Assembly: GCA_965197965.1 (NCBI GenBank)
Contig: OZ240235.1
Coordinates: 1,189,820 to 1,253,819, forward strand
DNA: 64,000 nt
Reading direction: 5' to 3'
Source of the DNA: Dehalococcoidia bacterium
GTDB taxonomy: Bacteria; Chloroflexota; Dehalococcoidia; Lucifugimonadales; QGNO01
How positions within the stretch are numbered: the first letter of the stretch is position 1; each line of letters starts with the position of its first letter. This document shows, piece after piece, positions 4,971 through 31,903 of this stretch. The position numbers and the translations under genes are program-made. The notes beneath the pieces were generated by a model. That model saw only the letters and a list, made by a program, of their open reading frames with translations, had not been told where the DNA came from and did not search any database.

Positions 4971-6296
4971 CTATCCGGGTAGTGTGGCCGGCTCCTCCTC
5001 CGCCACAGCCTTGCGCTGCGGCGGCCTAGCCATGAACAGCAGAATGCCCGATGTGGCGAAGAAGCCCGCCGAGACCATCCACAGCGTCGTATGGGTTACC
5101 CCGGCATCCAAAAGGAACCCATAGACCGGGGGTCCCAATCCGGTCGCCGCCACCTGCACGGGGAACACTATGCCGCGGATGGTGCCCAAAAACCTCCGTC
5201 CAAAGTAGTTGGGCCAGATCAGATTGTTCGCCGTGATATAGGCGCCTCCTCCCGTAGCCCAGATCATGTTGTGGGCAAAGATGGTGTACGTCTGGCCGCT
5301 GGACAGTATCATGGGGATCATGGAAAGAGTGAAGACCAGCCCGCCGAATAGGGCCAGGTTCCGCGTCCTCACCTTCTCTCCAATAACGCCGAATACCACC
5401 ACGGAGAACATGAACGTGAACGGGTCCATCGCCGTGCCGAAAGCCACCAGCGCCGGCGACATGCCCGTCTCCTCCCAGTACGCCACTCTGTGAAGCAGCG
5501 TGCCCGCCAGTGCGAAGCCGCCCACGGCCAGCGCAAACAGTATCAGCCAGGACACGGGGTGCCGCAGCGCCTCCCTGGCTGTCCAGTCGGTCTCGACGAC
5601 CCTCCCCGACCCCAGGCCGGTGACGCCGGGCGATGGCGCGGTCCGCGTACCGTTCAAACCGTCGGGCTGAAGTCCCAGGTCGGAGGGTGCGCCCCGTAGA
5701 AAGAGAAGGCTCAACGGAACGGTGATTACCGCCGCCAGCACGCCCAGGATGGCCCACGCCTCACGCCAGCCTGTGTTTTGGATTATCCACTGCGCCGCCG
5801 GAATGATTAAGACCGTGCCTATCGCCATCCCCGTGGTGGCTATGGACATGGCGCGGCCCCGTTTCCTTACGAACCACTTGGCCACGGGCACCAGGGTGAG
5901 CAGGTTGCCTCCCGGCCCGCCTCCTAGTCCGACGCCGCCTGAGACCGCGAACAGCAGATAGAGCATCCATATCTGGTGTGTGTAGAACAGCCCAATCAAG
6001 CTGCCGCCTGCCACCAGACCGGCGATGAGCCCCAGCCACCGCGGACCAAACCTATCGATTATCACCCCAATGAGCGGCGCGGTGACCCCGCTTACCACCA
6101 GCCGGAACGTTATCGCCAGGGACAGCGCCCCCAGGCTCCAACCCATCTCCTCGCTCATCGGCGCTATGAAGAACGAGAACACCACCGGGTTCAGCGGCGA
6201 CGTGGCCATGTTGATAGCCAGAGCCGTAGCCACAATCACCCAGCCGTAGTAGAGCCGGGAGGGAATGGGAACGGGAACGGTGGGCAGCCTTTGCAT
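4971..6296 (-). CDS. MFS transporter
   Basis: 441 aa, about 12 hydrophobic segments, with a D-R-x-G-R-like loop (IDRFGPRW). Confidence 0.85.
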   Translation of the reverse strand: MQRLPTVPVPIPSRLYYGWVIVATALAINMATSPLNPVVFSFFIAPMSEEMGWSLGALSLAITFRLVVSGVTAPLIGVIIDRFGPRWLGLIAGLVAGGSLIGLFYTHQIWMLYLLFAVSGGVGLGGGPGGNLLTLVPVAKWFVRKRGRAMSIATTGMAIGTVLIIPAAQWIIQNTGWREAWAILGVLAAVITVPLSLLFLRGAPSDLGLQPDGLNGTRTAPSPGVTGLGSGRVVETDWTAREALRHPVSWLILFALAVGGFALAGTLLHRVAYWEETGMSPALVAFGTAMDPFTFMFSVVVFGVIGEKVRTRNLALFGGLVFTLSMIPMILSSGQTYTIFAHNMIWATGGGAYITANNLIWPNYFGRRFLGTIRGIVFPVQVAATGLGPPVYGFLLDAGVTHTTLWMVSAGFFATSGILLFMARPPQRKAVAEEEPATLPG

Positions 6297-14437: not shown

Positions 14438-15274
14438 TCACACCGCCAAGTCAAATGGCAAGTCACTGATGTCGCGTAGTCTCCTGCCGGTCATGAGTAT
14501 GTCTAACAATTCAGCATCTGACTCGTTACCCACAACTGCATCCTTCAATTCCCTCAGCGCAAAATGGTAGATGCAGTCGATATCGCCTGTACCATAGGCC
14601 AGTGACGCTATTCGACCAGGAAGAGGTTCCCCTGTGACTACGACTATATGTGGTGTCTTGCCTTTTCGATTTCGCACCAGGTTCAAGCCCTCGGTGCGTG
14701 CGTTTTGAGAGCGGTCACTACGAATTGTCCACTTGCAAGAGACGCTCGCGTGCAGAATCTTCGCTTCCGAATTCGTGCGTCGCAGCGGGGTATAGCTAGC
14801 AACGGTATCGTTGTTCAAAAGGGATTCGTTCTCGTTGATTTTCGAGTCCGTAACCGGCTCTCGGCAGACAACAATGTCAGGCTTTACGATATAGTCGCCA
14901 AAGATGATCTGTAGCTCCTGATGCTCTTCAACCACTCGTCGCACATCGGACAAGTGTAAATACTGCTCGTAGTCACGGATGTCTCCGCCCATCGAGAATT
15001 CCCACTCGCCAGGGCGTAGATGAGCAAGTAACCCAAATGCGTCGCGTAGAAAGCTCCTTGTGGCCTCTTCGAATTGATGTCCCGCCGTCTGCCCAGCCAA
15101 TCTCTCAGACCCCACCGGAAGCCCAATGTTCTCGACTATGCCTCTGGCAATCCTCGCACTCGATGCACTTCCGCTGTCGGCGTTGTTCGGAATTCCAGAC
15201 GTATTCAGTCTCAATACGTCGTTGGCAATTTGGCGGTGGTAAGCTTGTCGGAGAGCTTCGATCCTGCCGGGCAT
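14438..15274 (-). CDS. type II restriction endonuclease, NgoMIV family
   Basis: 278 aa, collinear with NgoMIV as I remember it: LHASVSCKWTIRSDRSQNARTEGLNLVRNRKGKTPHIVVVTGEP, GTGDIDCIYHFAL, RLRDISDLPFDLAV. Contains the S-x-K catalytic motif. The start shares one nt with the MTase stop (TAATG). Confidence 0.85.
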   Translation of the reverse strand: MPGRIEALRQAYHRQIANDVLRLNTSGIPNNADSGSASSARIARGIVENIGLPVGSERLAGQTAGHQFEEATRSFLRDAFGLLAHLRPGEWEFSMGGDIRDYEQYLHLSDVRRVVEEHQELQIIFGDYIVKPDIVVCREPVTDSKINENESLLNNDTVASYTPLRRTNSEAKILHASVSCKWTIRSDRSQNARTEGLNLVRNRKGKTPHIVVVTGEPLPGRIASLAYGTGDIDCIYHFALRELKDAVVGNESDAELLDILMTGRRLRDISDLPFDLAV

Positions 15275-16650
15275 TACATCTTCACCAATCCGATCACGTA
15301 CTCTTTGTGCATACGCTCTTCAATCTGTGATTGCTGTAGCTGACCCCATCGAGCTGGCATCATACGTTTGTCACGATCCAACAGCCGTGTACCGATTCCC
15401 GCTAGAATGAAGCCGGCATGTTCACCGATGGCGGCGAGTCCCTTGTGTGTCTCTACATCCAGGCCCCTTAATTTCGAGGAACCTACTACTATCACAGCCG
15501 GCCGGCCTACTTTCAATACACGCTGCATCTCACAAATGACAGTCTTCATTTCCTCAAAGTAGCGACGCAATACAAGTGCCTTCTTATCATCGCGATTCGC
15601 CAGCTTGACCAACGTCTCTTCACACTGGCTCGGTAGCCCATCCCTGCGCAAGCCAGCAACCGCGTCGTGGCCTACATACTGCGCACGAATCTGGCTGAGG
15701 TCTGCAATCTTCCAACCAAACCACACCAGCGAAAACTTGTGTGCGCGCATATAGTCAATAGCGTTGTTGGCATAGGGTGGCGACGTCACAATCAGATCAA
15801 CACTCGCGGGCGGCAGGCTGGTGTCTGCCGCACTAGTGGCGTGAATGGATGCGGAGGGGAAGGCTTGCGCCTCATCTCCACCGGCTCCGCCTAAAAGAGT
15901 AGGCGTTGCAAGGCCGATTAAGTCGCGCTTACCGAGAGCCGCTACGTTACGCTCTAAACGCTTGCCAAACTCGATGAAGGCCGATACGGGTGTCTTATTT
16001 GTGTCCCTGTGAGGGCGGGTGTGTGCCAAGTCGCGCGCCAATGATACCCCACCAGACTTGGCAATGATTGTTGATGAGAACACTACCTGAAGGAAGCTGC
16101 GCATTCCTCCTTCTGGTAAAGCTTCAATGTGCTGCACGAGAGCAAGCAGTTCAAGCTGTTGCTGGGGCAGGAACCAATAACTTACGAATTCTCGTGTCTT
16201 CGCGTCGAACCTAAGGTTTAAATCCCTCAGTAGCCTCCAGCGGGATTGGTGATAGTCCTCACTTGCGCCAGCTATGATCTTCTTTCCCTCCCAGAGGGCG
16301 ACGACTGGATCAATGGGAGTCAACTTGGCTGTTGCAATCATTCGTGCCAGCGGATCAATGTCGCAGCCAACGGCTCGGCGTCCGAGCCGTATAGCTTCGA
16401 TGAGCGTAGTTCCGGAACCGAGCATGGGATCTAGAACGAGGTCGCCCGGGTTCGAGAGATGGCGAATCATGAACTCTGGCAACTGGGGCGGAAACTTAGC
16501 TGGGAAGGAGTGCCAAGCGTGAGAGCCGTAGCTGCCGTTCGTACCGTGGAAATCTAAGTTAGCACGCAGTGCTTCACGCGTCGCGTCAAGGCGGCTGCCA
16601 ATGTCATCTACTTGAACGGCGGAGTCGGAGGTGAGGTTCAAAAAGCTCAA
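15274..16650 (-). CDS. site-specific DNA amino-methyltransferase (N4-C/N6-A type)
   Basis: 458 aa. HSFPAKFPPQLP, motif I VLDPMLGSGTTLIEA, motif IV LIVTSPPYANN. Translationally coupled to the endonuclease gene. Confidence 0.85.
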   Translation of the reverse strand: MSFLNLTSDSAVQVDDIGSRLDATREALRANLDFHGTNGSYGSHAWHSFPAKFPPQLPEFMIRHLSNPGDLVLDPMLGSGTTLIEAIRLGRRAVGCDIDPLARMIATAKLTPIDPVVALWEGKKIIAGASEDYHQSRWRLLRDLNLRFDAKTREFVSYWFLPQQQLELLALVQHIEALPEGGMRSFLQVVFSSTIIAKSGGVSLARDLAHTRPHRDTNKTPVSAFIEFGKRLERNVAALGKRDLIGLATPTLLGGAGGDEAQAFPSASIHATSAADTSLPPASVDLIVTSPPYANNAIDYMRAHKFSLVWFGWKIADLSQIRAQYVGHDAVAGLRRDGLPSQCEETLVKLANRDDKKALVLRRYFEEMKTVICEMQRVLKVGRPAVIVVGSSKLRGLDVETHKGLAAIGEHAGFILAGIGTRLLDRDKRMMPARWGQLQQSQIEERMHKEYVIGLVKM

Positions 16651-20936: not shown

Positions 20937-21164
20937 TCACCGCTTCATCAGTACGGTGAATTCCTCTACGGAAAGGCCAGCATGCCGAATCAGTGCCCTT
21001 AACGTGCCACGAGCAATCTCTCTATGATCTGGAACCGAAAGGGTTGCCACTGATTCCTCTTTTGTCATGATGATATGGCTGCCAGCTTGCCTCGCAACCC
21101 TCCAACCCGCACTTTCAAATGCCCGCACCGCTTGCTGCCCAGAAACCACGGGCAGTACGGCCAT
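20937..21164 (-). CDS. hicA: HicA family toxin
   Basis: 75 aa. SGQQAVRAFESAGWRVARQAGSHIIM. Confidence 0.8.
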   Translation of the reverse strand: MAVLPVVSGQQAVRAFESAGWRVARQAGSHIIMTKEESVATLSVPDHREIARGTLRALIRHAGLSVEEFTVLMKR

Positions 21165-21479
21165 CTAAGCTGGTACCTCTACCACTATCTCAACTTCAGC
21201 AGTTTCAATAGTGAACGGTAGACTGTCCTCTTCTCTGGACTTCAGAATCTGCTTTATCTCTTCTCCTATAACCTGGGGGTCATCTTCTTGAGAAACCCGT
21301 CCGAACCCTTCGCTATCTCTTACTTCCAGTGAAAGACGGATAGCCTCCCGGATATTCTGAAGCGCCTCTTCTCTGCTTTCCCCCTGGCTCACGCACCCCG
21401 GTAGAGCGGGGCAGTGGATGGAATAGCCTCCCGCCTTTTCTGGCTCTAGTATGACGGTGAACTTTTTCTGCTTTTCCAT
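21165..21479 (-). CDS. hicB: HicB family antitoxin
   Basis: 104 aa. FTVILEPEKAGGYSIHCPALPGCVSQGESREEALQNIREAI. Confidence 0.8.
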   Translation of the reverse strand: MEKQKKFTVILEPEKAGGYSIHCPALPGCVSQGESREEALQNIREAIRLSLEVRDSEGFGRVSQEDDPQVIGEEIKQILKSREEDSLPFTIETAEVEIVVEVPA

Positions 21480-24118: not shown

Positions 24119-24643
24119 CGCAGCCATCCGCACCGTAGGGGCAACCCTCGTGGTTGCCCTGGCCCGTACCCGACCATTCCCCGCACTGTCATTCTGAACG
24201 GAGCTCCCGCGGAGTGAAGAATCCAAAGCCTCTGCCCGCAAAGCCGTGCTGTTTACTCCAACCACCCCCTCCGTCATGCCCGTGACGACGGGCATCCAGG
24301 GGCGGGGCGGGGAGCCGCCGTCATCCGCACCGTAGGGGCAACCCTCGTGGTTGCCCTGGCCCATACCCGACCATTCGCCCCCGCACTGTCATTCTGAACG
24401 GAGCTCCCGCGGAGTGAAGAATCCAAAGCCTCTGCCCGCAAAGCCGCGTTGCTTAATCAAACCGCTCCTCCGTAGTGAGCAATCGCCCCCCTCTCGTCAT
24501 TGCGAGCGCAGCGAAGCAATCCGGCGGCCGGGGGGTTGTCATTCTTGAGCGCAGCGAAGAATCTTTTACCATAGCAAACTCCGTCCCCTTACCCGCAACT
24601 CCGCCCCGTTTGCCCGCCTGCCCTCTTGCCCGTCCGCCTCCCC
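24119..24643. repeat. intergenic hairpin-repeat mosaic with a 197-bp tandem composite
   Basis: GTAGGGGCAACCCTCGTGGTTGCCC at 24135-24159 and 24332-24356. GTCATTCTGAACGGAGCTCCCGCGGAGTGAAGAATCC modules at 24188 and 24388. ATTGC-type at 24495-24527 and ATTCT-type at 24538-24573. TTGCCCG-rich tail 24600-24640. Composite period 197 bp (24125 vs 24322). Confidence 0.9.
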
Positions 24644-25555
24644 CTACCCCCACCACCGCATGCTCTCACCGTAGGGGCGGGTCTTCTCCTCCGGGCCGGG
24701 CTTGCGGAACACAAACAGGTGCTCGTGCATTATGAGAAGGAAATTCTTATCGCGAGACAGGCGAGTCCACAGGCCCTCCGTCTGGGTATTCCACTGAGCC
24801 TTGACAATGTCCTCTTTGAGGATGAATCCGGCCTCCAGGAACGCCTGCATGACGCGAAACGCTATTGGCGTGTAGTGCTTGTTGCGGCGCGTATCGCCCA
24901 CCAGGATGGCGCAGTAGTGATCGGGCTTCAGCACGCGGAAGCACTCATCCGCCACCAGCCTCATCTGCTCCACAAACTCCGCTATGTCGCGCACCTTGGA
25001 CAGGTCGCCGTTATGCGCCGCTTCCTTGCCCGAATACTTGATGATGTTCGCGTAGGGAGGATGCGTGGCGATGAGGTCGATTGAGTCCGCCTCTATCTTG
25101 TCCAGGCGCCGCGCGTCTCCCTGGTACAGACGTATGTCGACCGGTTCCAGCGGCTCCTCCAGCCTGCCCGAGAAGTTGAGCGCGTCCATGGTCAGCATCA
25201 GCGAGTCGCGGTTGACGTCCACGCCTATGCCGTGGCGGCCCGTCAGCTTGCACTCCACGAGTGTCGTGCCGCCGCCCGCCATCTGGTCGAGCACCGTGTC
25301 CCCGGGCAGCGAGTACCTCTCGATGACGTTGCGAACTATCTGCGGAGCCCAGTTGCCCCGGTAGGCGGCGCGATGCGTGGCCCATCTGCCCCGCTTGGGA
25401 AACGACCACAGCGTGGTGGTCTCCGTCTTGAAATCGTCTGGCTGGAGCTTCTTGGGACGCTGGTGTCCCTTGAGGCGGATCTCGACTTCCCCAGCCGATA
25501 CGGTCTTTTGGCGGGCAAGGAAAGACAGGTAATCGGCTTGTGTAATGAGCCGCAT
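24644..25555 (-). CDS. site-specific DNA amino-methyltransferase (N6-A/N4-C type)
   Basis: 303 aa. LWSFPKRG..ATH..YRGNWAPQI, motif I VLDQMAGGGTTLVE, motif IV IDLIATHPPYANII (unusual His before PPY). Confidence 0.8.
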   Translation of the reverse strand: MRLITQADYLSFLARQKTVSAGEVEIRLKGHQRPKKLQPDDFKTETTTLWSFPKRGRWATHRAAYRGNWAPQIVRNVIERYSLPGDTVLDQMAGGGTTLVECKLTGRHGIGVDVNRDSLMLTMDALNFSGRLEEPLEPVDIRLYQGDARRLDKIEADSIDLIATHPPYANIIKYSGKEAAHNGDLSKVRDIAEFVEQMRLVADECFRVLKPDHYCAILVGDTRRNKHYTPIAFRVMQAFLEAGFILKEDIVKAQWNTQTEGLWTRLSRDKNFLLIMHEHLFVFRKPGPEEKTRPYGESMRWWG

Positions 25556-25556
25556 T

Positions 25557-25619
25557 GATCAGACCGCCAGAGCGATCCGATCTTACGGATCATTTTCAAA
25601 AGATCAAGATCAAATGATC
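25557..25619. promoter_or_regulatory. GATC cluster / inverted-repeat operator-like region upstream of the methyltransferase gene
   Basis: GATC at 25557, 25574, 25579, 25588, 25602, 25608 and 25616. Inverted repeats GATCCG-n6-CGGATC (25574-25591) and AGATCA AGATCA aa TGATCT (25601-25620). Confidence 0.6.
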
Positions 25620-25633
25620 TAACAAACCGCCGA

Positions 25634-26431
25634 CTATCTCAGAACCCTGTAGTGTCCGCCATCCAGGAACTGCAAGACCCCGTTATCACGCAGAACCTGT
25701 AGCTGCTGACGAATCTTGGGCTGGACGTTTCTATTCTCTGGGTGAAGGCCGCCTAGATAACCTTCAAAAGCCTTGTAGAAGCCCTGAAGGACGAACTCAT
25801 CGGAGTTAGTCATCTCTTGCATCTTTCTGACGCACATGAGGATATCCGCAGTCCATCCCCCTTTGGCATTCTCACCCTGGCCAAGAAAAGCGAACCGGCT
25901 CCAAGCGTCGCGTACATCTTGAGACGGCAAAGCTTTTTCATTCTCTACAACTGTGACACGCGCGTCTCCCGGTAGCTCACGCAACAAGATATTGGAGCCT
26001 ACCCATCCGGCACGGCGTGCCCATGGAGGTAAAGGAGGACGTTTTTCAATGATAGCAGGCGTTATGAAGTACCCAGGCACAATGAATAAGTCCATAACCA
26101 CCCATCTCTGTCGAGAGTAGCGAAGGAATATGTAGTTAGGCGCCAGCCCGTCTTGGATGGCTTTCATCTTGGGCCAATAGGCAGAATTGGAGGCTTTCCT
26201 GCCAAAAGTCTTGTCCGCGCTTTTCAGTTGGTAGCTGGCCTTACAGTCCGGGCAATCGTAATCCCTTACTCTTGCGTTTGCCCGCAACTGGTCCAAATGC
26301 TCTGATGGACATGCCGGGCAGAACAGGTTCTCCCTTGCCCAATGTTCGGTAATTACTCGTGCTATCTGCGAATGGCTCTGGTAACCCTCAGCCAAGGACG
26401 GGTCTAAGTTCAGATCCACGTACAACTCCAA
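25634..26431 (-). CDS. DpnI-family (methyl-GATC-directed type IIM/IV) restriction endonuclease homolog
   Basis: 265 aa, collinear with DpnI as I remember it: YQSHSQIARVITEHW, FCPAC, RDYDCPDCKASYQLKS, RRAGWVGSNI, KIRQQLQVLRDNGVLQF (C-terminal winged helix). Confidence 0.85.
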   Translation of the reverse strand: MELYVDLNLDPSLAEGYQSHSQIARVITEHWARENLFCPACPSEHLDQLRANARVRDYDCPDCKASYQLKSADKTFGRKASNSAYWPKMKAIQDGLAPNYIFLRYSRQRWVVMDLFIVPGYFITPAIIEKRPPLPPWARRAGWVGSNILLRELPGDARVTVVENEKALPSQDVRDAWSRFAFLGQGENAKGGWTADILMCVRKMQEMTNSDEFVLQGFYKAFEGYLGGLHPENRNVQPKIRQQLQVLRDNGVLQFLDGGHYRVLR

Positions 26432-26746: not shown

Positions 26747-26775
26747 CGGAGACTCCGATTACCCCGGAGTCTCCG
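26747..26775. terminator. perfect 11-bp hairpin (CGGAGACTCCG-attaccc-CGGAGTCTCCG)
   Basis: Read directly. The stop codon of the 280-aa gene (26759-26761) sits in the loop. No clear U-tract on either strand, so terminator function is uncertain. Confidence 0.4.
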
Positions 26776-27601
26776 TAGTATTGACGATATGTCCATTGCT
26801 CTCGACTTGCCGTTCATTGGCACGTTGTTGCTCTAGTTGTCGCCTGCCTCTGGCTCGGAACACTTTGCCGAGTGCCGCCCAGACCTCATCGAATTCTTTA
26901 TCCTCGAATTCAGCAAGGTCTTGCTCTGAGATTACCAATGAGCCAGAGGGTGCAGATATATCTGTGGAGGCACCGGTTGTAGCCCTTTGGGTTTGTTGTG
27001 GCTTAGGCGGGTCGTTGGGTAGTACATAATCTGGTTCTGAAGGGGCTTCAAAAACGGGCATTATGGTTGTTCTCTCAACCGACAGATATGTATGCCCACC
27101 AGATGATACCAATACCCCTATATCACGCGCAGAGTCCATCAGAACCCGAAGAGCCGAGCCTACTCTGTTGGACTCTATCTCAAACTCACGTTCTAGAACG
27201 TTCCGCATCTCGGCATCTTGGGGTAGATGCTGACCCTTGAAGCGCATAGCCACTTCCCTGAACAGCGGTATCCGTAGAAATGATTCTCGAAGGGCATCGC
27301 TCTTTTCTTCTGGTGAAGTAGGCTTGATAATAGCCTTCGCCAAGTCTGTAGTAGACAACTCCTCTCCTGCTTTCGTTAGCAACCCAAATTGTCTCGCAGT
27401 CAGTCCACGAAGCAAAAAGCCACTACTCTTGGCTGAGACGCCAAGGTTTATTGCCAATGTACTTTGGGTTAGCCTTCCGGCACCGCCTCGTTCAACCGCT
27501 TCCGCTATTTGCAGAGCAGTACCGAAATCATAAGCAGGGAACAGATAGCGAGACCTAACCGGTTGTTTGCGAACCCTACCATTATTACTCTCAACAGCCA
27601 T
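26759..27601 (-). CDS. hypothetical protein, probable winged-helix DNA-binding N-terminal region
   Basis: 280 aa. Two similar segments (FGTALQIAEAVERGG..LTQSTLAINLGVS; LSTTDLAKAI...) suggest wHTH modules. Acidic/basic C-terminal tail. No family recognised. AT-rich islet. Confidence 0.55.
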   Translation of the reverse strand: MAVESNNGRVRKQPVRSRYLFPAYDFGTALQIAEAVERGGAGRLTQSTLAINLGVSAKSSGFLLRGLTARQFGLLTKAGEELSTTDLAKAIIKPTSPEEKSDALRESFLRIPLFREVAMRFKGQHLPQDAEMRNVLEREFEIESNRVGSALRVLMDSARDIGVLVSSGGHTYLSVERTTIMPVFEAPSEPDYVLPNDPPKPQQTQRATTGASTDISAPSGSLVISEQDLAEFEDKEFDEVWAALGKVFRARGRRQLEQQRANERQVESNGHIVNTTETPG

Positions 27602-28568
27602 CTAGTGACCACCTCCCAATTCTATGCTACTTACTATATTAAGGATCACTCTACAGCCCCACTTACAGCCTGTCAAGGGAGTATACATCACACTTTTGAG
27701 TTTTGTTGAGTATTGACATACGGGGACAGTTGTACCTGTTCAGGGATGTTTGTATCTCAATTGCTTCCTCCAAGGCAACGTAGTCATGCCATTCGTTGCC
27801 ATACAATTTGCTAAAGTTAATACTCATTCTCATAAGAGAGCAGATATATATTCCCTTAAAAAACACGTAGCTAAGGTATGTTATTCTCATAGCAATAAGT
27901 GGAGCAGTTGCAAATCAAATGAGAAAGTTCCAGCACGCTTCTAAATCTTGTACATGGGAGGTGTGGCATGTACGGACCGCGAGGAGATTGGAAGTCTGCC
28001 GCCGCCGAGAATCTGCGTCGCATGGGCAGGGGGGACAGCGCTAAGGCGCTCTACGGGGTCAAGGATAAGCCCAAGCGCCAGCACGACGAGCGCCTAGCCC
28101 GCGAATGGCGCAAGAAAGCCAAGCGACAGGCAAGGAGCAACACGCCCCCTACATCCTTCTTTGCCCGGCTGAGAAGACTCCTGCGCCTCTGAGAACGGCA
28201 ACGATAGACGGACGGGTCTAAGGTAAGACAACACCCCCCGCCACCCACCCCTTTCCCATACCTGCACTCTGCCCTTATCCTCTATCCATGAGCACCACCT
28301 GCAAACTACCGCCTGCCAGCATCGGCCCGCGCCATCTCCCTCTCCAGACGGCCCTGCACCGTCTCTCCCTCCTCAATGACAATCGTCGCATCCATGACAG
28401 CTTAGGATTTGTTTTCCCATATTTCCAGAAAAAGTGGGGCGTTCTAGCTTTGGAAGTTGACATAACGTTTGAAACAATTCGACTCCCTGCCCCCTCCCCT
28501 TCCATGAGTACACCGATACCATTTTCTGATAGAGTCGGTAACGCTGGATGAACGCAAAGGAGGGAATC

Positions 28569-29819: not shown

Positions 29820-30250
29820 GGCATCCGCCCCGCCATTCCGAGGAACGGAAGCAACCCGGCCGGCCGCACCGTAGGGGCAACCCTCGTGGTTGCCCCGGCC
29901 GCGCCCCGCCGCGGCCTCCCCTAGCCTGCACCCGGCTATTTCCACTCACTCCCTCCGTCATTGCCTCCATTTCGTCATTGCGAGCGCAGCGAAGCAATCT
30001 GGTGGCGCGGGGCGAGCAACGCGCACTCCCCTCTGTCATTCTGAACGGAGTTCCGCGGAGTGAAGAATCCAAAGCCTCTGTCCGCAAAGCCGCGACGTTT
30101 AATCGAACTGCCCCCTCCGTCATGCCCGTGACGACGAGTACCCAGGGGCGGCGGGGAGCCTGTCATTCTGAACGTAGCTACGCGGAGTTAAGAATCCAAA
30201 GCCTCTGTCTACAAAGCCGCGCCGTTTAATCGAACTGCCCCCTGGGAAGC
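29820..30250. repeat. intergenic hairpin-repeat mosaic
   Basis: GTAGGGGCAACCCTCGTGGTTGCCCC 29871-29896. ATTGC-type 29973-30005. Two GTCATTCTGAACG...GAAGAATCCAAAGCCTCTGTC modules starting at 30045 and 30162. CCGTCATGCCCGTGACGACG hairpin about 30116-30150. Confidence 0.9.
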
Positions 30251-31903
30251 CTAGATCTCTAGGAGCCTAGCCGCCACCACGCGCGCTTCGTCCCAACTCT
30301 GCACCCTCTGGTCTAATGGTACGTGCTTGAGAATATTGAGGGCCTCAAGATTCCTGGCAGGCATCCCGGCCAGGCCCATCACTATGCAGCCGGTTTCGTA
30401 GCTCGTGGCGGTCTCGATGAGTCGCTCGATCACCATGGCCGCACTCTCGTCTATGTAAACCGTGTTGGAAAAGTCCAGAATCACGACCTCGTGCTCACGG
30501 ATGTCTTCGCCAATGGTGTCCAACAGCTTCCTGGACGATGCGACGGTAAAGGAGCCTCTCAGCGCAACCAGTCCAACCCTGGCCGAGAAGTCTTCCAGAT
30601 CGTCCTCTCTCGCTCTGCCGCCGAAGAAGCTCTGGTCCAGAATGGGCACTGAGACCACGCTGTCCAGCTCCAGCCTTTCGAACTGGCGCGCGCTGGTTAC
30701 TGCGGCGGCTATCATACCGGCCGCTATAGCGGTGACCAAGTCCAGGAACACGGTGAGACCTAGGGTTAGCAGCATGACCACCATGTGCTCACGCTGAATG
30801 CGGAACAATCTGGTGACAAATCTCCATTCCATGGTGTCCAAGGCAACTTTCATGAGGATGCCCGCCAAGAGGGCGTTGGGAATCTTGGCTACATAGTCTT
30901 CTAGGGCCAGAATCATAACCACCAGGATAACCACGGCAATCACGCCTGCAACAACGGTAGTCCCACCCGCCCTAATGTTGGCTATGGTGCTTGGGGTGGC
31001 CCCGGACCCGGGCAGACCCTGGATGAATCCGGTGACCACGGCGCCTAGGCCCTGGGCAAACAGCTCCTTGTTGGGGTCGTGACGTGCCCGCGTCATGGAG
31101 TCACCCACAAGCGCGGTCAGCAAGGTGTCCGCAGACCCTACAAGGGCTAGGACCATCGCGGGCTCAATGGCGCGCACCAGTGCGTCGAAGGAAAGGGCTG
31201 GCATCTTGAGGACAGGCAGGTCAGTGGGTACGTTGCCGATGGTAGGAGCGTTGCTAAACCATAGGACGGTCACGATTATACCCGCGAAGAGGGCGACCAG
31301 GGTAGACGGCAAATACTTGTCTAGTCTGCTTGGCCATATAATGGCTACGCCAAGGGTGACTCCCGCTATGCCTACGGCGCTGATATCAAAGCCCTCTATT
31401 ATTCCTGAGAAGTTTCGCATAGCTTCAACTGGCCCGCCGGTTACGGGATCAGCTCCCATGAAGGGCAGAATCTGAACCGATAGGATTATTATTCCAACCC
31501 CTGTCATAAACCCGGCTACGACAGAGTAGGGCGTGTAAGATACGAAACGTCCAATTCGCAGAAAGCCGAAAAGCATCTGGATAAGGCCCGCCATGATGAC
31601 AATGGTAAATGCCTGGGCCATGTTTTCAGCGTAGCTGGTGACGATGACGGCCATGGCCACGGTCATTGAACCCGTGGGACCCGATATAAGTGACCTAGTG
31701 CCTCCGAACACGGCGGCAAAGAACCCTACGGCGACCGCTCCGTATATTCCGGCGGCGGGTCCCAGTCCTGATGACACGCCAAATGCCAAGGCCACGGGCA
31801 GACCCACCACAGCCGCAGTGATGCCGCCAAGAACGTCTCCGAACATGGTCTGGAAGCTGTAACGCTGGGGAAGTTGCGCAAGACGATCCAGCAAACCGGT
31901 CAC
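30251..31903 (-). CDS. SulP family inorganic anion transporter with C-terminal STAS domain
   Basis: 550 aa. N-terminal D..GG.TAAVVGLP.ALAF, many TM segments, and an STAS-like C-terminus (VVILDFSNTVYIDESAAMVIERL). Confidence 0.9.
   Translation of the reverse strand: MTGLLDRLAQLPQRYSFQTMFGDVLGGITAAVVGLPVALAFGVSSGLGPAAGIYGAVAVGFFAAVFGGTRSLISGPTGSMTVAMAVIVTSYAENMAQAFTIVIMAGLIQMLFGFLRIGRFVSYTPYSVVAGFMTGVGIIILSVQILPFMGADPVTGGPVEAMRNFSGIIEGFDISAVGIAGVTLGVAIIWPSRLDKYLPSTLVALFAGIIVTVLWFSNAPTIGNVPTDLPVLKMPALSFDALVRAIEPAMVLALVGSADTLLTALVGDSMTRARHDPNKELFAQGLGAVVTGFIQGLPGSGATPSTIANIRAGGTTVVAGVIAVVILVVMILALEDYVAKIPNALLAGILMKVALDTMEWRFVTRLFRIQREHMVVMLLTLGLTVFLDLVTAIAAGMIAAAVTSARQFERLELDSVVSVPILDQSFFGGRAREDDLEDFSARVGLVALRGSFTVASSRKLLDTIGEDIREHEVVILDFSNTVYIDESAAMVIERLIETATSYETGCIVMGLAGMPARNLEALNILKHVPLDQRVQSWDEARVVAARLLEI

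Follow-up and report, generated by a model that had tools for sequence, protein, structure and literature searches.

How can a nuclease that is predicted to cut GATC sites only when they are methylated persist next to an intact methyltransferase which itself seems to come from GATC restriction systems? This question is raised by a pair of genes within a 64,000-nt stretch (hereafter the window, in whose coordinates all positions are given) of contig OZ240235.1 from the Dehalococcoidia bacterium assembly GCA_965197965.1. Both genes lie on the minus strand: a nuclease gene of the DpnI/Drg family (26431..25634) is followed by a 78-bp spacer holding seven GATC sites and looking promoter-like by sequence (25556..25633, likewise read on the minus strand), and then by an intact amino-methyltransferase gene (25555..24644; 303 aa, starting with ATG) whose catalytic motif IV reads HPPY. 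Neither a DpnII-family nor a Dam-like open reading frame (ORF) was found in the window. The answer towards which we lean, tentatively, is that an active nuclease dependent on N6-methyladenine (m6A) in GATC, i.e., on Gm6ATC, is combined here with a GATC methylase whose mark is not a substrate for that nuclease, most simply N4-methylcytosine. A sequence-only reading that preceded this analysis had made both family assignments, had placed the methyltransferase gene 78 bp downstream on the same strand and had pointed out that the pairing would be self-destructive if the methyltransferase made Gm6ATC; profile searches and ORF coordinates bear out the former claims, and the paradox is upheld.

The nuclease (265 aa if read from its TTG) matches the Pfam families DpnI (PF06044; E=1.6e-54, 184.8 bits against a cut-off of 26.7) and DpnI_C (PF17726; E=3.1e-20, 72.6 bits against a cut-off of 23), as well as the PADLOC model mREase_II (“type II methyl-directed restriction enzyme”; 4.8e-61), and is collinear with the DpnI structure (PDB 4esj) over residues 5-263 (E=4.2e-49), displaying a PD-(D/E)XK domain (D57...Q68-L-K70), a Cys4 zinc site and a C-terminal winged helix. 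As its homologs are 261 aa long and begin with MDLNLD, the true start is probably the GTG at 26419, which would result in a protein of 261 aa. A comparison with PHROG returned no match for the nuclease, and a viral origin of the module was considered and rejected, with one full-length DpnI-family gene and eight HPPY genes present in 2.9 million viral contigs.

In the HMMER alignment, Q68 of the window protein falls on E64 of DpnI (YQLKS vs FELKS), whereas the other catalytic residues are retained (E29, D57 and K70 correspond to DpnI E25, D53 and K66) and the zinc cysteines C38, C41, C60 and C63 align with C34, C37, C56 and C59; the strict catalytic set E25/D53/E64/K66 is thus broken at a single place, and what is the norm for the family is preserved. 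The roles of the DpnI residues, be they catalytic, base-reading or methyl-contacting, were taken from the DpnI papers, according to which E64 is a ligand of the catalytic metal and the E64A substitution abolishes activity. The sequence-only reading had noticed both this glutamine at the catalytic column and the HPPY motif of the methyltransferase, correctly in both cases, and had regarded the two as atypical deviations, which they are not: glutamine is found at the E64 column in 69 and glutamate in 67 of 150 DpnI-family representatives (clustered at 50%), QxK is present in all of the 120 closest nuclease homologs (120/120), and THPPY is seen in 118/120 of the closest methyltransferase homologs. 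Judging by this distribution, QxK is one of two major and ancient variants of the family and not a defect, and the near-invariance of D53, K66, E25 and the four zinc cysteines among the Q-type members argues for retained catalysis. Active PD-(D/E)XK enzymes with Q or N at the position of E64 include HinP1I, MspI and Mrr. A PD-QXK Mrr catalytic domain is also mentioned in PMC11037411.

What the nuclease would read seems to be conserved just as well. In DpnI, as described in the DpnI papers, the G:C pairs are read by N48, R126, R135, S17 and the D78 carbonyl, and the A:T pairs by Q18; the two methyl groups are contacted by L129, R135 and W138 (the last supported by G140), the N4 of the GATC cytosine is read too, and fully methylated GATC is bound by the winged helix as well, whose pocket consists of E228, K229, R231, Q232 and Q235. 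The catalytic domain of the window nuclease keeps S17, Q18, N48, R126, L129, R135, W138 and G140, and its winged helix keeps K229, R231, Q232 and Q235 along with the recognition helix KIRQQLQ; E228 is replaced by P, a clade-wide feature at a position that varies across the family, and NS stands at positions 78-79 where DpnI has DG, which is clade-wide as well and not specific to the paired nucleases. Close relatives exist in which the nuclease is solitary (L002, L003 and L172 among our comparison loci) or accompanied by a split methyltransferase (L173), and the DNA-contact residues are identical in methyltransferase-paired and solitary close relatives (L002-L009, L172). Because relatives lacking a methyltransferase keep identical DNA contacts, the nuclease is, as far as its residues tell, methyl-directed and independent of the methyltransferase, and presumably cleaves only Gm6ATC. 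An altered methylation preference, one of the readings offered earlier, finds no support here: the base- and methyl-reading residues are conserved and the same in paired and solitary relatives, and an altered specificity of the paired clade was rejected on the same grounds, the NS-for-DG change being clade-wide.

The pairing itself is not an accident of a single contig. The order of nuclease, a 78-92 bp spacer and methyltransferase was seen in nine places with at least four unrelated sets of flanks: the window and the syntenic L162; L171, with RNase_T and transglutaminase neighbours; L163 and L165, flanked by TauE and TGT; L164, flanked by PALP and TGT; L173 and L174, with DLH flanks; and L001, where the pairing is by similarity only. 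Across these modules the identity of the nuclease to that of the window falls to 58%, and dS (synonymous divergence) reaches 1-2 for the distant pairs. Purifying selection acts on both genes, the ratio of nonsynonymous to synonymous divergence (dN/dS) being 0.12-0.35 in the nuclease and 0.10-0.18 in the methyltransferase. The HPPY methyltransferase of L173 (L173:3864-4917) is broken inside its variable insert into two ORFs of 184 and 150 aa, and the otherwise similar L174 has an intact one (349 aa); the split is either a real inactivation or a long-read assembly indel. The contigs of the related loci seem to stem from long-read assemblies deposited at ENA (e.g., ERZ25069580, ERZ26167216 and ERZ25067264).

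On a wider scale, among the 80 nuclease-centred loci taken from species-representative genomes, 77 of which could be typed as Q or E, an intact amino-methyltransferase adjoins the DpnI-family gene in 17. The earlier statement that this family normally has no cognate methyltransferase is thus roughly true, in that most of its genes are solitary (most of the Q-type ones included), and falls short for these 17/77. Intact methyltransferase neighbours are unevenly spread over the two types (14/39 Q-type vs 3/38 E-type; Fisher p=0.005), and intact HPPY genes adjoin the nuclease in L001, in L014 and L015 (Nitrospirae, divergently oriented) and in L060 (Parcubacteria, E-type). The window nuclease departs from stand-alone type IIM/IV nucleases in having a companion methyltransferase, and the window pair departs from conventional type II restriction-modification (R-M) systems in that its endonuclease does not need the methylase.

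A different kind of methylase accompanies some other Q-type homologs (L018, L032, L041, L064, L073, L074, L075 and L026; Acidobacteriota and others), where a DPPY beta-class enzyme is encoded 16-22 bp upstream. It is intact (e.g., L018:4822-5985), 52% identical to the second methylase of LlaDCHI from pSRQ700, 43-45% identical to its best alphaproteobacterial matches, and matches CcrM in the PDB with E=3.2e-56. The frame of this DPPY methylase runs through 5-7 GATC sites (..DLDL..MDRS..) into a C-terminal region of ~66 aa that is conserved and ends with IKTETEIYLAQ.

As for the methyltransferase of the window, it belongs to Pfam N6_N4_Mtase (PF01555; E=5.7e-25, 89 bits against a cut-off of 26.7) and matches PADLOC MTase_II (PDLC03376; 1.1e-75) from end to end. 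Its motif I (DQMAGGG, residues 90-96) precedes motif IV (THPPY, residues 164-168), so that neither the beta-class order (motif IV, target-recognition region, motif I) nor the beta-class form of motif IV, (D/N/S)PP(Y/F), is followed; HPPY is, by its distribution in sequence databases, the hallmark of the whole family and not a deviation. Compared with PDB 2zie, the closest solved relative by sequence, which has SPPY as its motif IV, the enzyme is circularly permuted: its residues 36-114 correspond to 2zie 191-265 (the C-terminal half, which binds S-adenosylmethionine) and its residues 142-223 to 2zie 23-101 (the N-terminal half containing motif IV), i.e., the halves are swapped. The same permuted order is seen in a second methyltransferase of the window, a 458-aa enzyme with SPPY (15274-16650). 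An alignment-based structure model of the HPPY enzyme (predicted local distance difference test, pLDDT, 81; predicted template-modelling score, pTM, 0.86) shows a complete Rossmann fold and gives no clue to the target base, and its best fold matches are archaeal Trm11 tRNA methyltransferases forming N2-methylguanosine (m2G), with a template-modelling (TM) score of ~0.45 and the motif order I then IV. Weak profile matches to TIGR01177, Trm14 and UPF0020 were also obtained, and the “TRM11 family” names of some NCBI members arise from the Trm11-like fold. The HPPY family comprises more than 7,700 database clusters; thermophilic archaea have many members, and Chloroflexota have some. Conjugative plasmids, too, commonly carry distant HPPY methylases (27-31% identity, with WWHPPY; 858 plasmid records), e.g., L170:1627-2523 on a conjugative plasmid of N. 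gonorrhoeae and L166:2537-3421 on a plasmid of A. faecalis; the gonococcus, as a host of such a plasmid methylase, also carries the DpnI-like nuclease Drg (PMC4269198).

On which sites would such an enzyme act? The neighbourhoods of its relatives were inspected in a methyltransferase-centred set of 80 metagenome loci (L081-L160; relatives at 48-63% identity), none of which contained a DpnI-family ORF (0/80, a positive control having been run). A DpnII-family endonuclease is present in 23 of these 80 loci (PF04556, 4.8e-16; PADLOC REase_II), the HPPY enzyme being the sole methylase in 20 of the 23, and a Dam-like D12 methylase in seven (PF02086, E=3.1e-64). A cassette of Fusobacterium vincentii consists of Dam-like, DpnII, Mrr_cat and HPPY genes, contigs classed as viral or as mobile elements carry the cassette Dam-like, DpnII, HPPY, and many of the contigs with HPPY loci are strongly depleted of GATC, having almost no such sites left. 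In the window GATC occurs 161 times against 252 expected under a maximal-order Markov model (observed/expected 0.64), which makes it the second most under-represented 4-bp palindrome after CTAG. By its gene neighbourhood the HPPY family belongs to GATC restriction systems, and because its members are often the only protective methylase beside DpnII-type enzymes, they appear to act on duplex GATC; the same neighbourhoods suggest GATC as the target of the window enzyme. An activity confined to single-stranded DNA, as in DpnA, fits poorly with the 20 loci in which HPPY is the sole methylase beside a DpnII-type enzyme.

The commonest neighbour of HPPY genes in these loci is a family of ~190 aa (“cluster 1”, 160-210 aa), found in 43 of the 80 (e.g., L106:5824-6549(+), L130:5902-6573(-) and L089:5958-6599(+)), often with no other neighbour and in some cases alongside a DpnII-like gene. 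Its motifs are DF.V...tPKH.H..iDLy.K and QED.N(F/Y)P, sequence searches of Pfam and the PDB found no relatives, and it is possibly an undescribed restriction endonuclease.

The third component of the module is the spacer. Its GATC sites start at 25557, 25574, 25579, 25588, 25602, 25608 and 25616 on the plus strand, and the Poisson probability of seven GATC within 62 bp is 3.9e-10, or 2.5e-5 after scanning all positions of the window. The cluster is kept, with 4-7 sites each, in all eight related modules (L162, L163, L164, L165, L001, L171, L173 and L174) despite the gene dS of 1-2. The aligned core of the spacer reads TAGATCATTTGATCTTGA(T/C)C, then ~16 nt, then TA(A/G/C)GATCNGATCGCTYYGGCG, and ends a few bases before the ATG of the methyltransferase. 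This resembles a sigma-70-type promoter of the methyltransferase gene, with a candidate -35 hexamer TTGATC (25607..25602, minus strand), replaced in three loci by TTGACC or TTGACG, which are nearer to the consensus, and a candidate -10 hexamer TAAGAT (25585..25580, minus strand) at a spacing of 16 nt; GATC sites overlap both hexamers and the transcript start. Comparable clusters were seen in the divergent intergenic region of L014/L015 (Nitrospirae) and in the Acidobacteriota modules, and over the DpnI-family loci as a whole they occur in 13/20 methylase-paired loci vs 1/63 others (Fisher p=1.9e-9).

Three inferences therefore collide: the nuclease would read fully N6-methylated GATC, the methyltransferase would act on duplex GATC, and yet their coexistence is of long standing. 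Where Dam-like genes lie beside DpnI-family genes they are truncated, whereas HPPY genes can stay intact, and since the pair is stable and the nuclease is solitary in close relatives, the product of the methyltransferase, on the view favoured here, cannot be fully N6-methylated GATC. In the favoured reading, the nuclease would cut duplex GATC bearing m6A on both strands, as in DNA coming from Dam-positive hosts or modified by a phage Dam, and the HPPY enzyme would place on GATC a mark other than m6A, most plausibly N4-methylcytosine, a non-m6A mark being simplest because the family serves both as the only protection from DpnII-type enzymes and as a lasting companion of DpnI-type ones; that HPPY also adjoins an Mrr-like gene in a Dam-positive cassette was counted as fitting. 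N4-methylcytosine in GATC would block DpnII-type cleavage, would not turn a site into a substrate for DpnI-type enzymes and may well protect it from them, so that the GATC sites of the host would stay uncleavable even if a foreign Dam methylated them, and Dam-modified invading DNA would be cut. The sites lying over the -35, the -10 and the early transcript would place the methyltransferase under methylation-sensitive control, either as autoregulation or as a sensor of Dam. By analogy, a cytosine mark is plausible: DpnI reads the cytosine N4, 2zie has SPPY, and the SPPY sister enzyme of the window partners an NgoMIV-family endonuclease, whose site, which we take to be GCCGGC, has no adenine.

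A bolder version of this, which we think possible and would not call likely, is a self/non-self scheme with two marks on one 4-bp site, the second mark vetoing the host’s own Gm6ATC nuclease; that second mark might be N4 on cytosine or, considering the Trm11-like fold and the unusual histidine, possibly N2 on guanine, N2-methylguanine being, to our knowledge, not known in DNA. If true, this scheme would let a host keep a methyl-directed nuclease despite phage or plasmid Dam enzymes methylating its chromosome, with the GATC-dense promoter sensing methylation, and it would explain why HPPY or DpnA-like methylases with GATC clusters are found beside the Q-type homologs of Nitrospirae and Acidobacteriota.

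A number of observations weigh against N4-methylcytosine on GATC and against the promoter that goes with it. The block of DpnII- and DpnI-type enzymes by N4-methylcytosine in GATC is assumed, every characterised DpnII-family system that we know of uses N6-adenine methylation, and both the GATC specificity and the modified base of HPPY are deduced from gene neighbourhood, in which HPPY fills the second-methylase slot that is held by DpnA-type N6-adenine enzymes in pSRQ700. The best fold matches are tRNA m2G enzymes, and the plasmid HPPY methylases are annotated as adenine methylases and carry a C-terminal winged helix resembling DpnI_C (hhalign probability 89.8%). No HPPY member with a measured specificity was found in the literature or among homolog annotations: the literature yielded nothing on HPPY or on MJ0598, homologs of an archaeal member beside a DpnII-like gene bear generic names only, NCBIfam has no equivalog for the family, and the Sulfolobus, archaeal-survey and Fusobacterium methylome papers do not assign it. 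Among the enzymes of DpnII-family systems, M.MjaIII (MJ0598) has been argued to form m6A (PMC2615612, where its family is not stated). The spacer with its GATC cluster belongs specifically to the DpnI-paired clade, most other HPPY genes having no such element upstream; it is therefore no general autoregulation device of the family, and because a stricter promoter scan did not list the spacer, we only infer its promoter function.

Several of the same points feed the rival that survives best, in which the methyltransferase is Dam-isospecific after all. If the mark is m6A, then the GATC-studded promoter must keep the methyltransferase off, and the module would be a conditional device that methylates and then cuts: a foreign Dam or some other trigger would methylate the promoter cluster and turn the methyltransferase on, hemi- or partly methylated DNA would be completed, and the nuclease would destroy the phage and possibly the host DNA (amplified restriction or abortive infection). 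The partners of HPPY are indeed DpnII-type enzymes, classically blocked by m6A, the second-methylase slot is common to HPPY and the DpnA-type adenine enzymes, and the plasmid relatives possess their DpnI_C-like winged helix; moreover, the cluster over the -35 and -10 is confined, among HPPY genes, to the DpnI-paired clade, and other methylase-paired DpnI-family modules (Nitrospirae, Acidobacteriota) have GATC clusters too. We nevertheless consider such a device unlikely. Any leakage would be deadly, and still the two genes have stayed together through deep divergence; the nuclease would, moreover, find a prime target in the seven-site cluster itself. The modules share no conserved repressor gene, what lies upstream being different in the window, L162 and L171, and the sequence carries no sign of inducibility.

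A more mundane possibility is ordinary juxtaposition, i.e., a stand-alone type IIM/IV nuclease next to an orphan or leftover methyltransferase of a non-GATC or irrelevant specificity, their adjacency being explained by the clustering of defence genes and by shared ancestry. Most DpnI-family genes are solitary and the nuclease survives the loss of the methyltransferase, a further R-M system and HicAB genes are encoded in the window, and winged-helix nucleases with methyltransferase neighbours that pose no conflict are described in PMC11037411. What renders this account rather improbable, and disfavours the unrelated specificity that the sequence-only reading had listed first, is that the gene order and the spacer persist amid unrelated flanks, with the spacer being a conserved GATC cluster in the presumed promoter region, that the methyltransferase family is tied to DpnII/Dam-type GATC cassettes, and that HPPY genes or fragments adjoin DpnI-family genes in distant phyla (L014, L015, L060, L029, L068).

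Harder still to sustain is the view of the Q variant as a weak or dead reader of methylated GATC that would bind the methylated cluster as a regulator, with a Dam-like methyltransferase as the other half of an epigenetic or regulatory module. The loss of DpnI activity in E64A, the enrichment of intact methyltransferase neighbours among the Q-type genes (14/39 vs 3/38) and the ability of the winged helix to bind fully methylated GATC, for which the cluster could serve as the ligand, all speak for it. It is weakened, as is the similar earlier proposal of an attenuated reader, by the near-invariant D53, K66, E25 and zinc site of the Q-type proteins, which one would not expect a dead nuclease to keep, and by half of the family being Q-type and mostly solitary; furthermore, active Q- or N-bearing enzymes exist (HinP1I, MspI, Mrr), a PD-QXK Mrr is mentioned in PMC11037411, and in L060 it is an E-type nuclease that has an HPPY gene next to it. 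Scarcely credible, finally, is a conventional type II R-M pair, whose DpnI-fold enzyme would cleave GATC that is unmethylated or modified in some other way, with the methyltransferase as the protector: operon-like order, a methyltransferase family that normally protects against DpnII-type enzymes and GATC depletion in the window are in its favour, but the residues of the methyl cleft and of the methyl pocket in the winged helix are kept, and they are identical in close relatives without the methyltransferase, where a methylation-blocked enzyme could not survive alone.

How the two genes came together can be surmised from remnants around position 6001 of each nuclease-centred locus. Dam-like genes are truncated at their 3' ends exactly at the nuclease start in L059, L060 and L078, C-terminal fragments of DpnII adjoin DpnI-family genes in L071 and L054, fragments of HPPY genes do so in L029, L068 and L015, and a degraded copy of the ~190-aa family lies beside the DpnI-family gene of L022. 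L060 retains its HPPY gene, and what is left of its Dam-like gene ends right behind the DPPY motif. Most likely, a DpnI-type gene took the place of the endonuclease gene in a GATC cassette, the Dam-like gene being lost along with it: a cassette of Dam-like, endonuclease and HPPY genes that lost the 3' end of dam and the endonuclease gene to a DpnI-type gene would give the arrangement of L060, and further erosion of an L060-like arrangement would give that of the window. The composition of the locus had also been remarked upon before, and the AT-richness is real (GC content of 0.50-0.51 in the nuclease gene and 0.43-0.51 in the region upstream of it to ~28.0 kb, vs 0.60-0.67 in the flanks), the methyltransferase gene being host-like at 0.61-0.64. 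The neisserial dam-replacing gene is likewise of lower GC than its host and replaces a gene for GATC methylation (PMC4269198, PMC516771), and the replacement of GATC cassettes by DpnI-type genes looks like a general pattern that extends beyond Neisseria.

Comparison with known systems shows which parts are familiar. With R.DpnI of Streptococcus pneumoniae (PDB 4esj, 4kyw; type IIM) the window nuclease shares the two-domain architecture, the zinc site, the D...xK motif, the GATC- and methyl-reading residues and the recognition helix KIRQQLQ, and it differs in having Q for the metal-binding E64, P for E228 and NS for DG at 78-79; it also differs in being followed by an intact methyltransferase gene and not by dpnD, which we take to follow the dpnI gene in S. 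pneumoniae. Drg/NmeBII, the dam-replacing gene that is the namesake of PF06044, has the same low GC and sits at a former GATC methylation system, just as DpnI-family genes in loci related to the window abut truncated Dam-like genes; in Neisseria, however, the methylase was replaced, whereas the window retains one cassette methylase, intact and conserved. In the DpnII/LlaDCHI/MboI type of cassette, HPPY takes the position of the second methylase, often being the sole one beside a DpnII-family enzyme; the window differs from these in that a methyl-dependent DpnI-type enzyme occupies the endonuclease slot, that there is no Dam-like gene, and that the methylase is a permuted HPPY enzyme and not of the beta-class DPPY DpnA type. 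Switches acting through promoter methylation exist in type II R-M systems (e.g., CfrBI), and Dam-sensitive promoters have GATC in their -10 or -35. The predicted placement of target sites within the promoter hexamers of a methylase gene is the same here, with 4-7 sites instead of one and with a companion nuclease that is methylation-dependent. The type IV nucleases fused to winged helices (PMC11037411) have the same PD-(D/E)XK and winged-helix composition, methyltransferase neighbours and the same question of genomic conflict; directly adjacent 4mC (N4-methylcytosine) or 6mA (N6-methyladenine) methylases were frameshifted in that survey, the only one found to have looked at them, whereas those of the present modules are intact and conserved and accompanied by a conserved GATC element. 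Lastly, archaeal Trm11 (tRNA m2G10; PDB 6zxw, 5e71) is the best fold match and has the same linear order of motif I before IV, but the HPPY enzyme lacks a THUMP domain, the TM score is only ~0.45, its halves match DNA beta-class enzymes, and its context is that of restriction cassettes.

Methyl-directed nucleases are thought to work alone, their weak point being a foreign methylase that turns them on their host. As far as could be found, a stable combination of a Gm6ATC nuclease with a methylase of GATC systems and a GATC-dense element has not been described; the parts are of known families, and the module, the GATC element, the assignment of HPPY to GATC and the enrichment of methylases beside Q-type genes appear to be undescribed. 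Resolving the role of HPPY would give a very large and so far uncharacterised family of methylases a function, would show whether a protective counter-mark or a conditional device that methylates and then cuts is at work, and would extend the neisserial dam-replacing idea to DpnI-type genes taking over GATC cassettes.

The surroundings of the module deserve a brief mention. A 280-aa ORF upstream of the nuclease (26759..27601, minus strand) has no match in Pfam, NCBIfam, PADLOC or PHROGs and was rejected as a part of the module, other genes being present there in L162 and L171; as the syntenic L162 carries AAA_21 and DUF4276 genes in its place, the slot upstream of the nuclease is variable. Beside this ORF lies the AT-richest stretch of the region (27602-28250; GC 0.43), with promoter-like sites at 27676-27648. 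A dispersed repeat of ~200 bp with the hairpin core GTAGGGGCAACCCTCGTGGTTGCCC occurs in seven copies in the window (24119-24534, 29855-30283, and also at 2093, 2892, 35734 and 37899) and translates as ..GNHEGCPYG.. in spurious ORFs. Tandem copies of it flank both sides of the stretch that contains the module and an amidohydrolase gene; direct repeats as island boundaries were nevertheless rejected, the element being dispersed. A HicA toxin (20937-21164) and a HicB-like antitoxin (21165-21479) are encoded on the minus strand a few kb from the module, and the second R-M pair of the window, likewise on the minus strand, is made up of the NgoMIV-family endonuclease (14438-15274; E=1.5e-102) and the 458-aa amino-methyltransferase described above, in which motif I stands before the SPPY motif IV and whose gene overlaps that of the endonuclease by one base.

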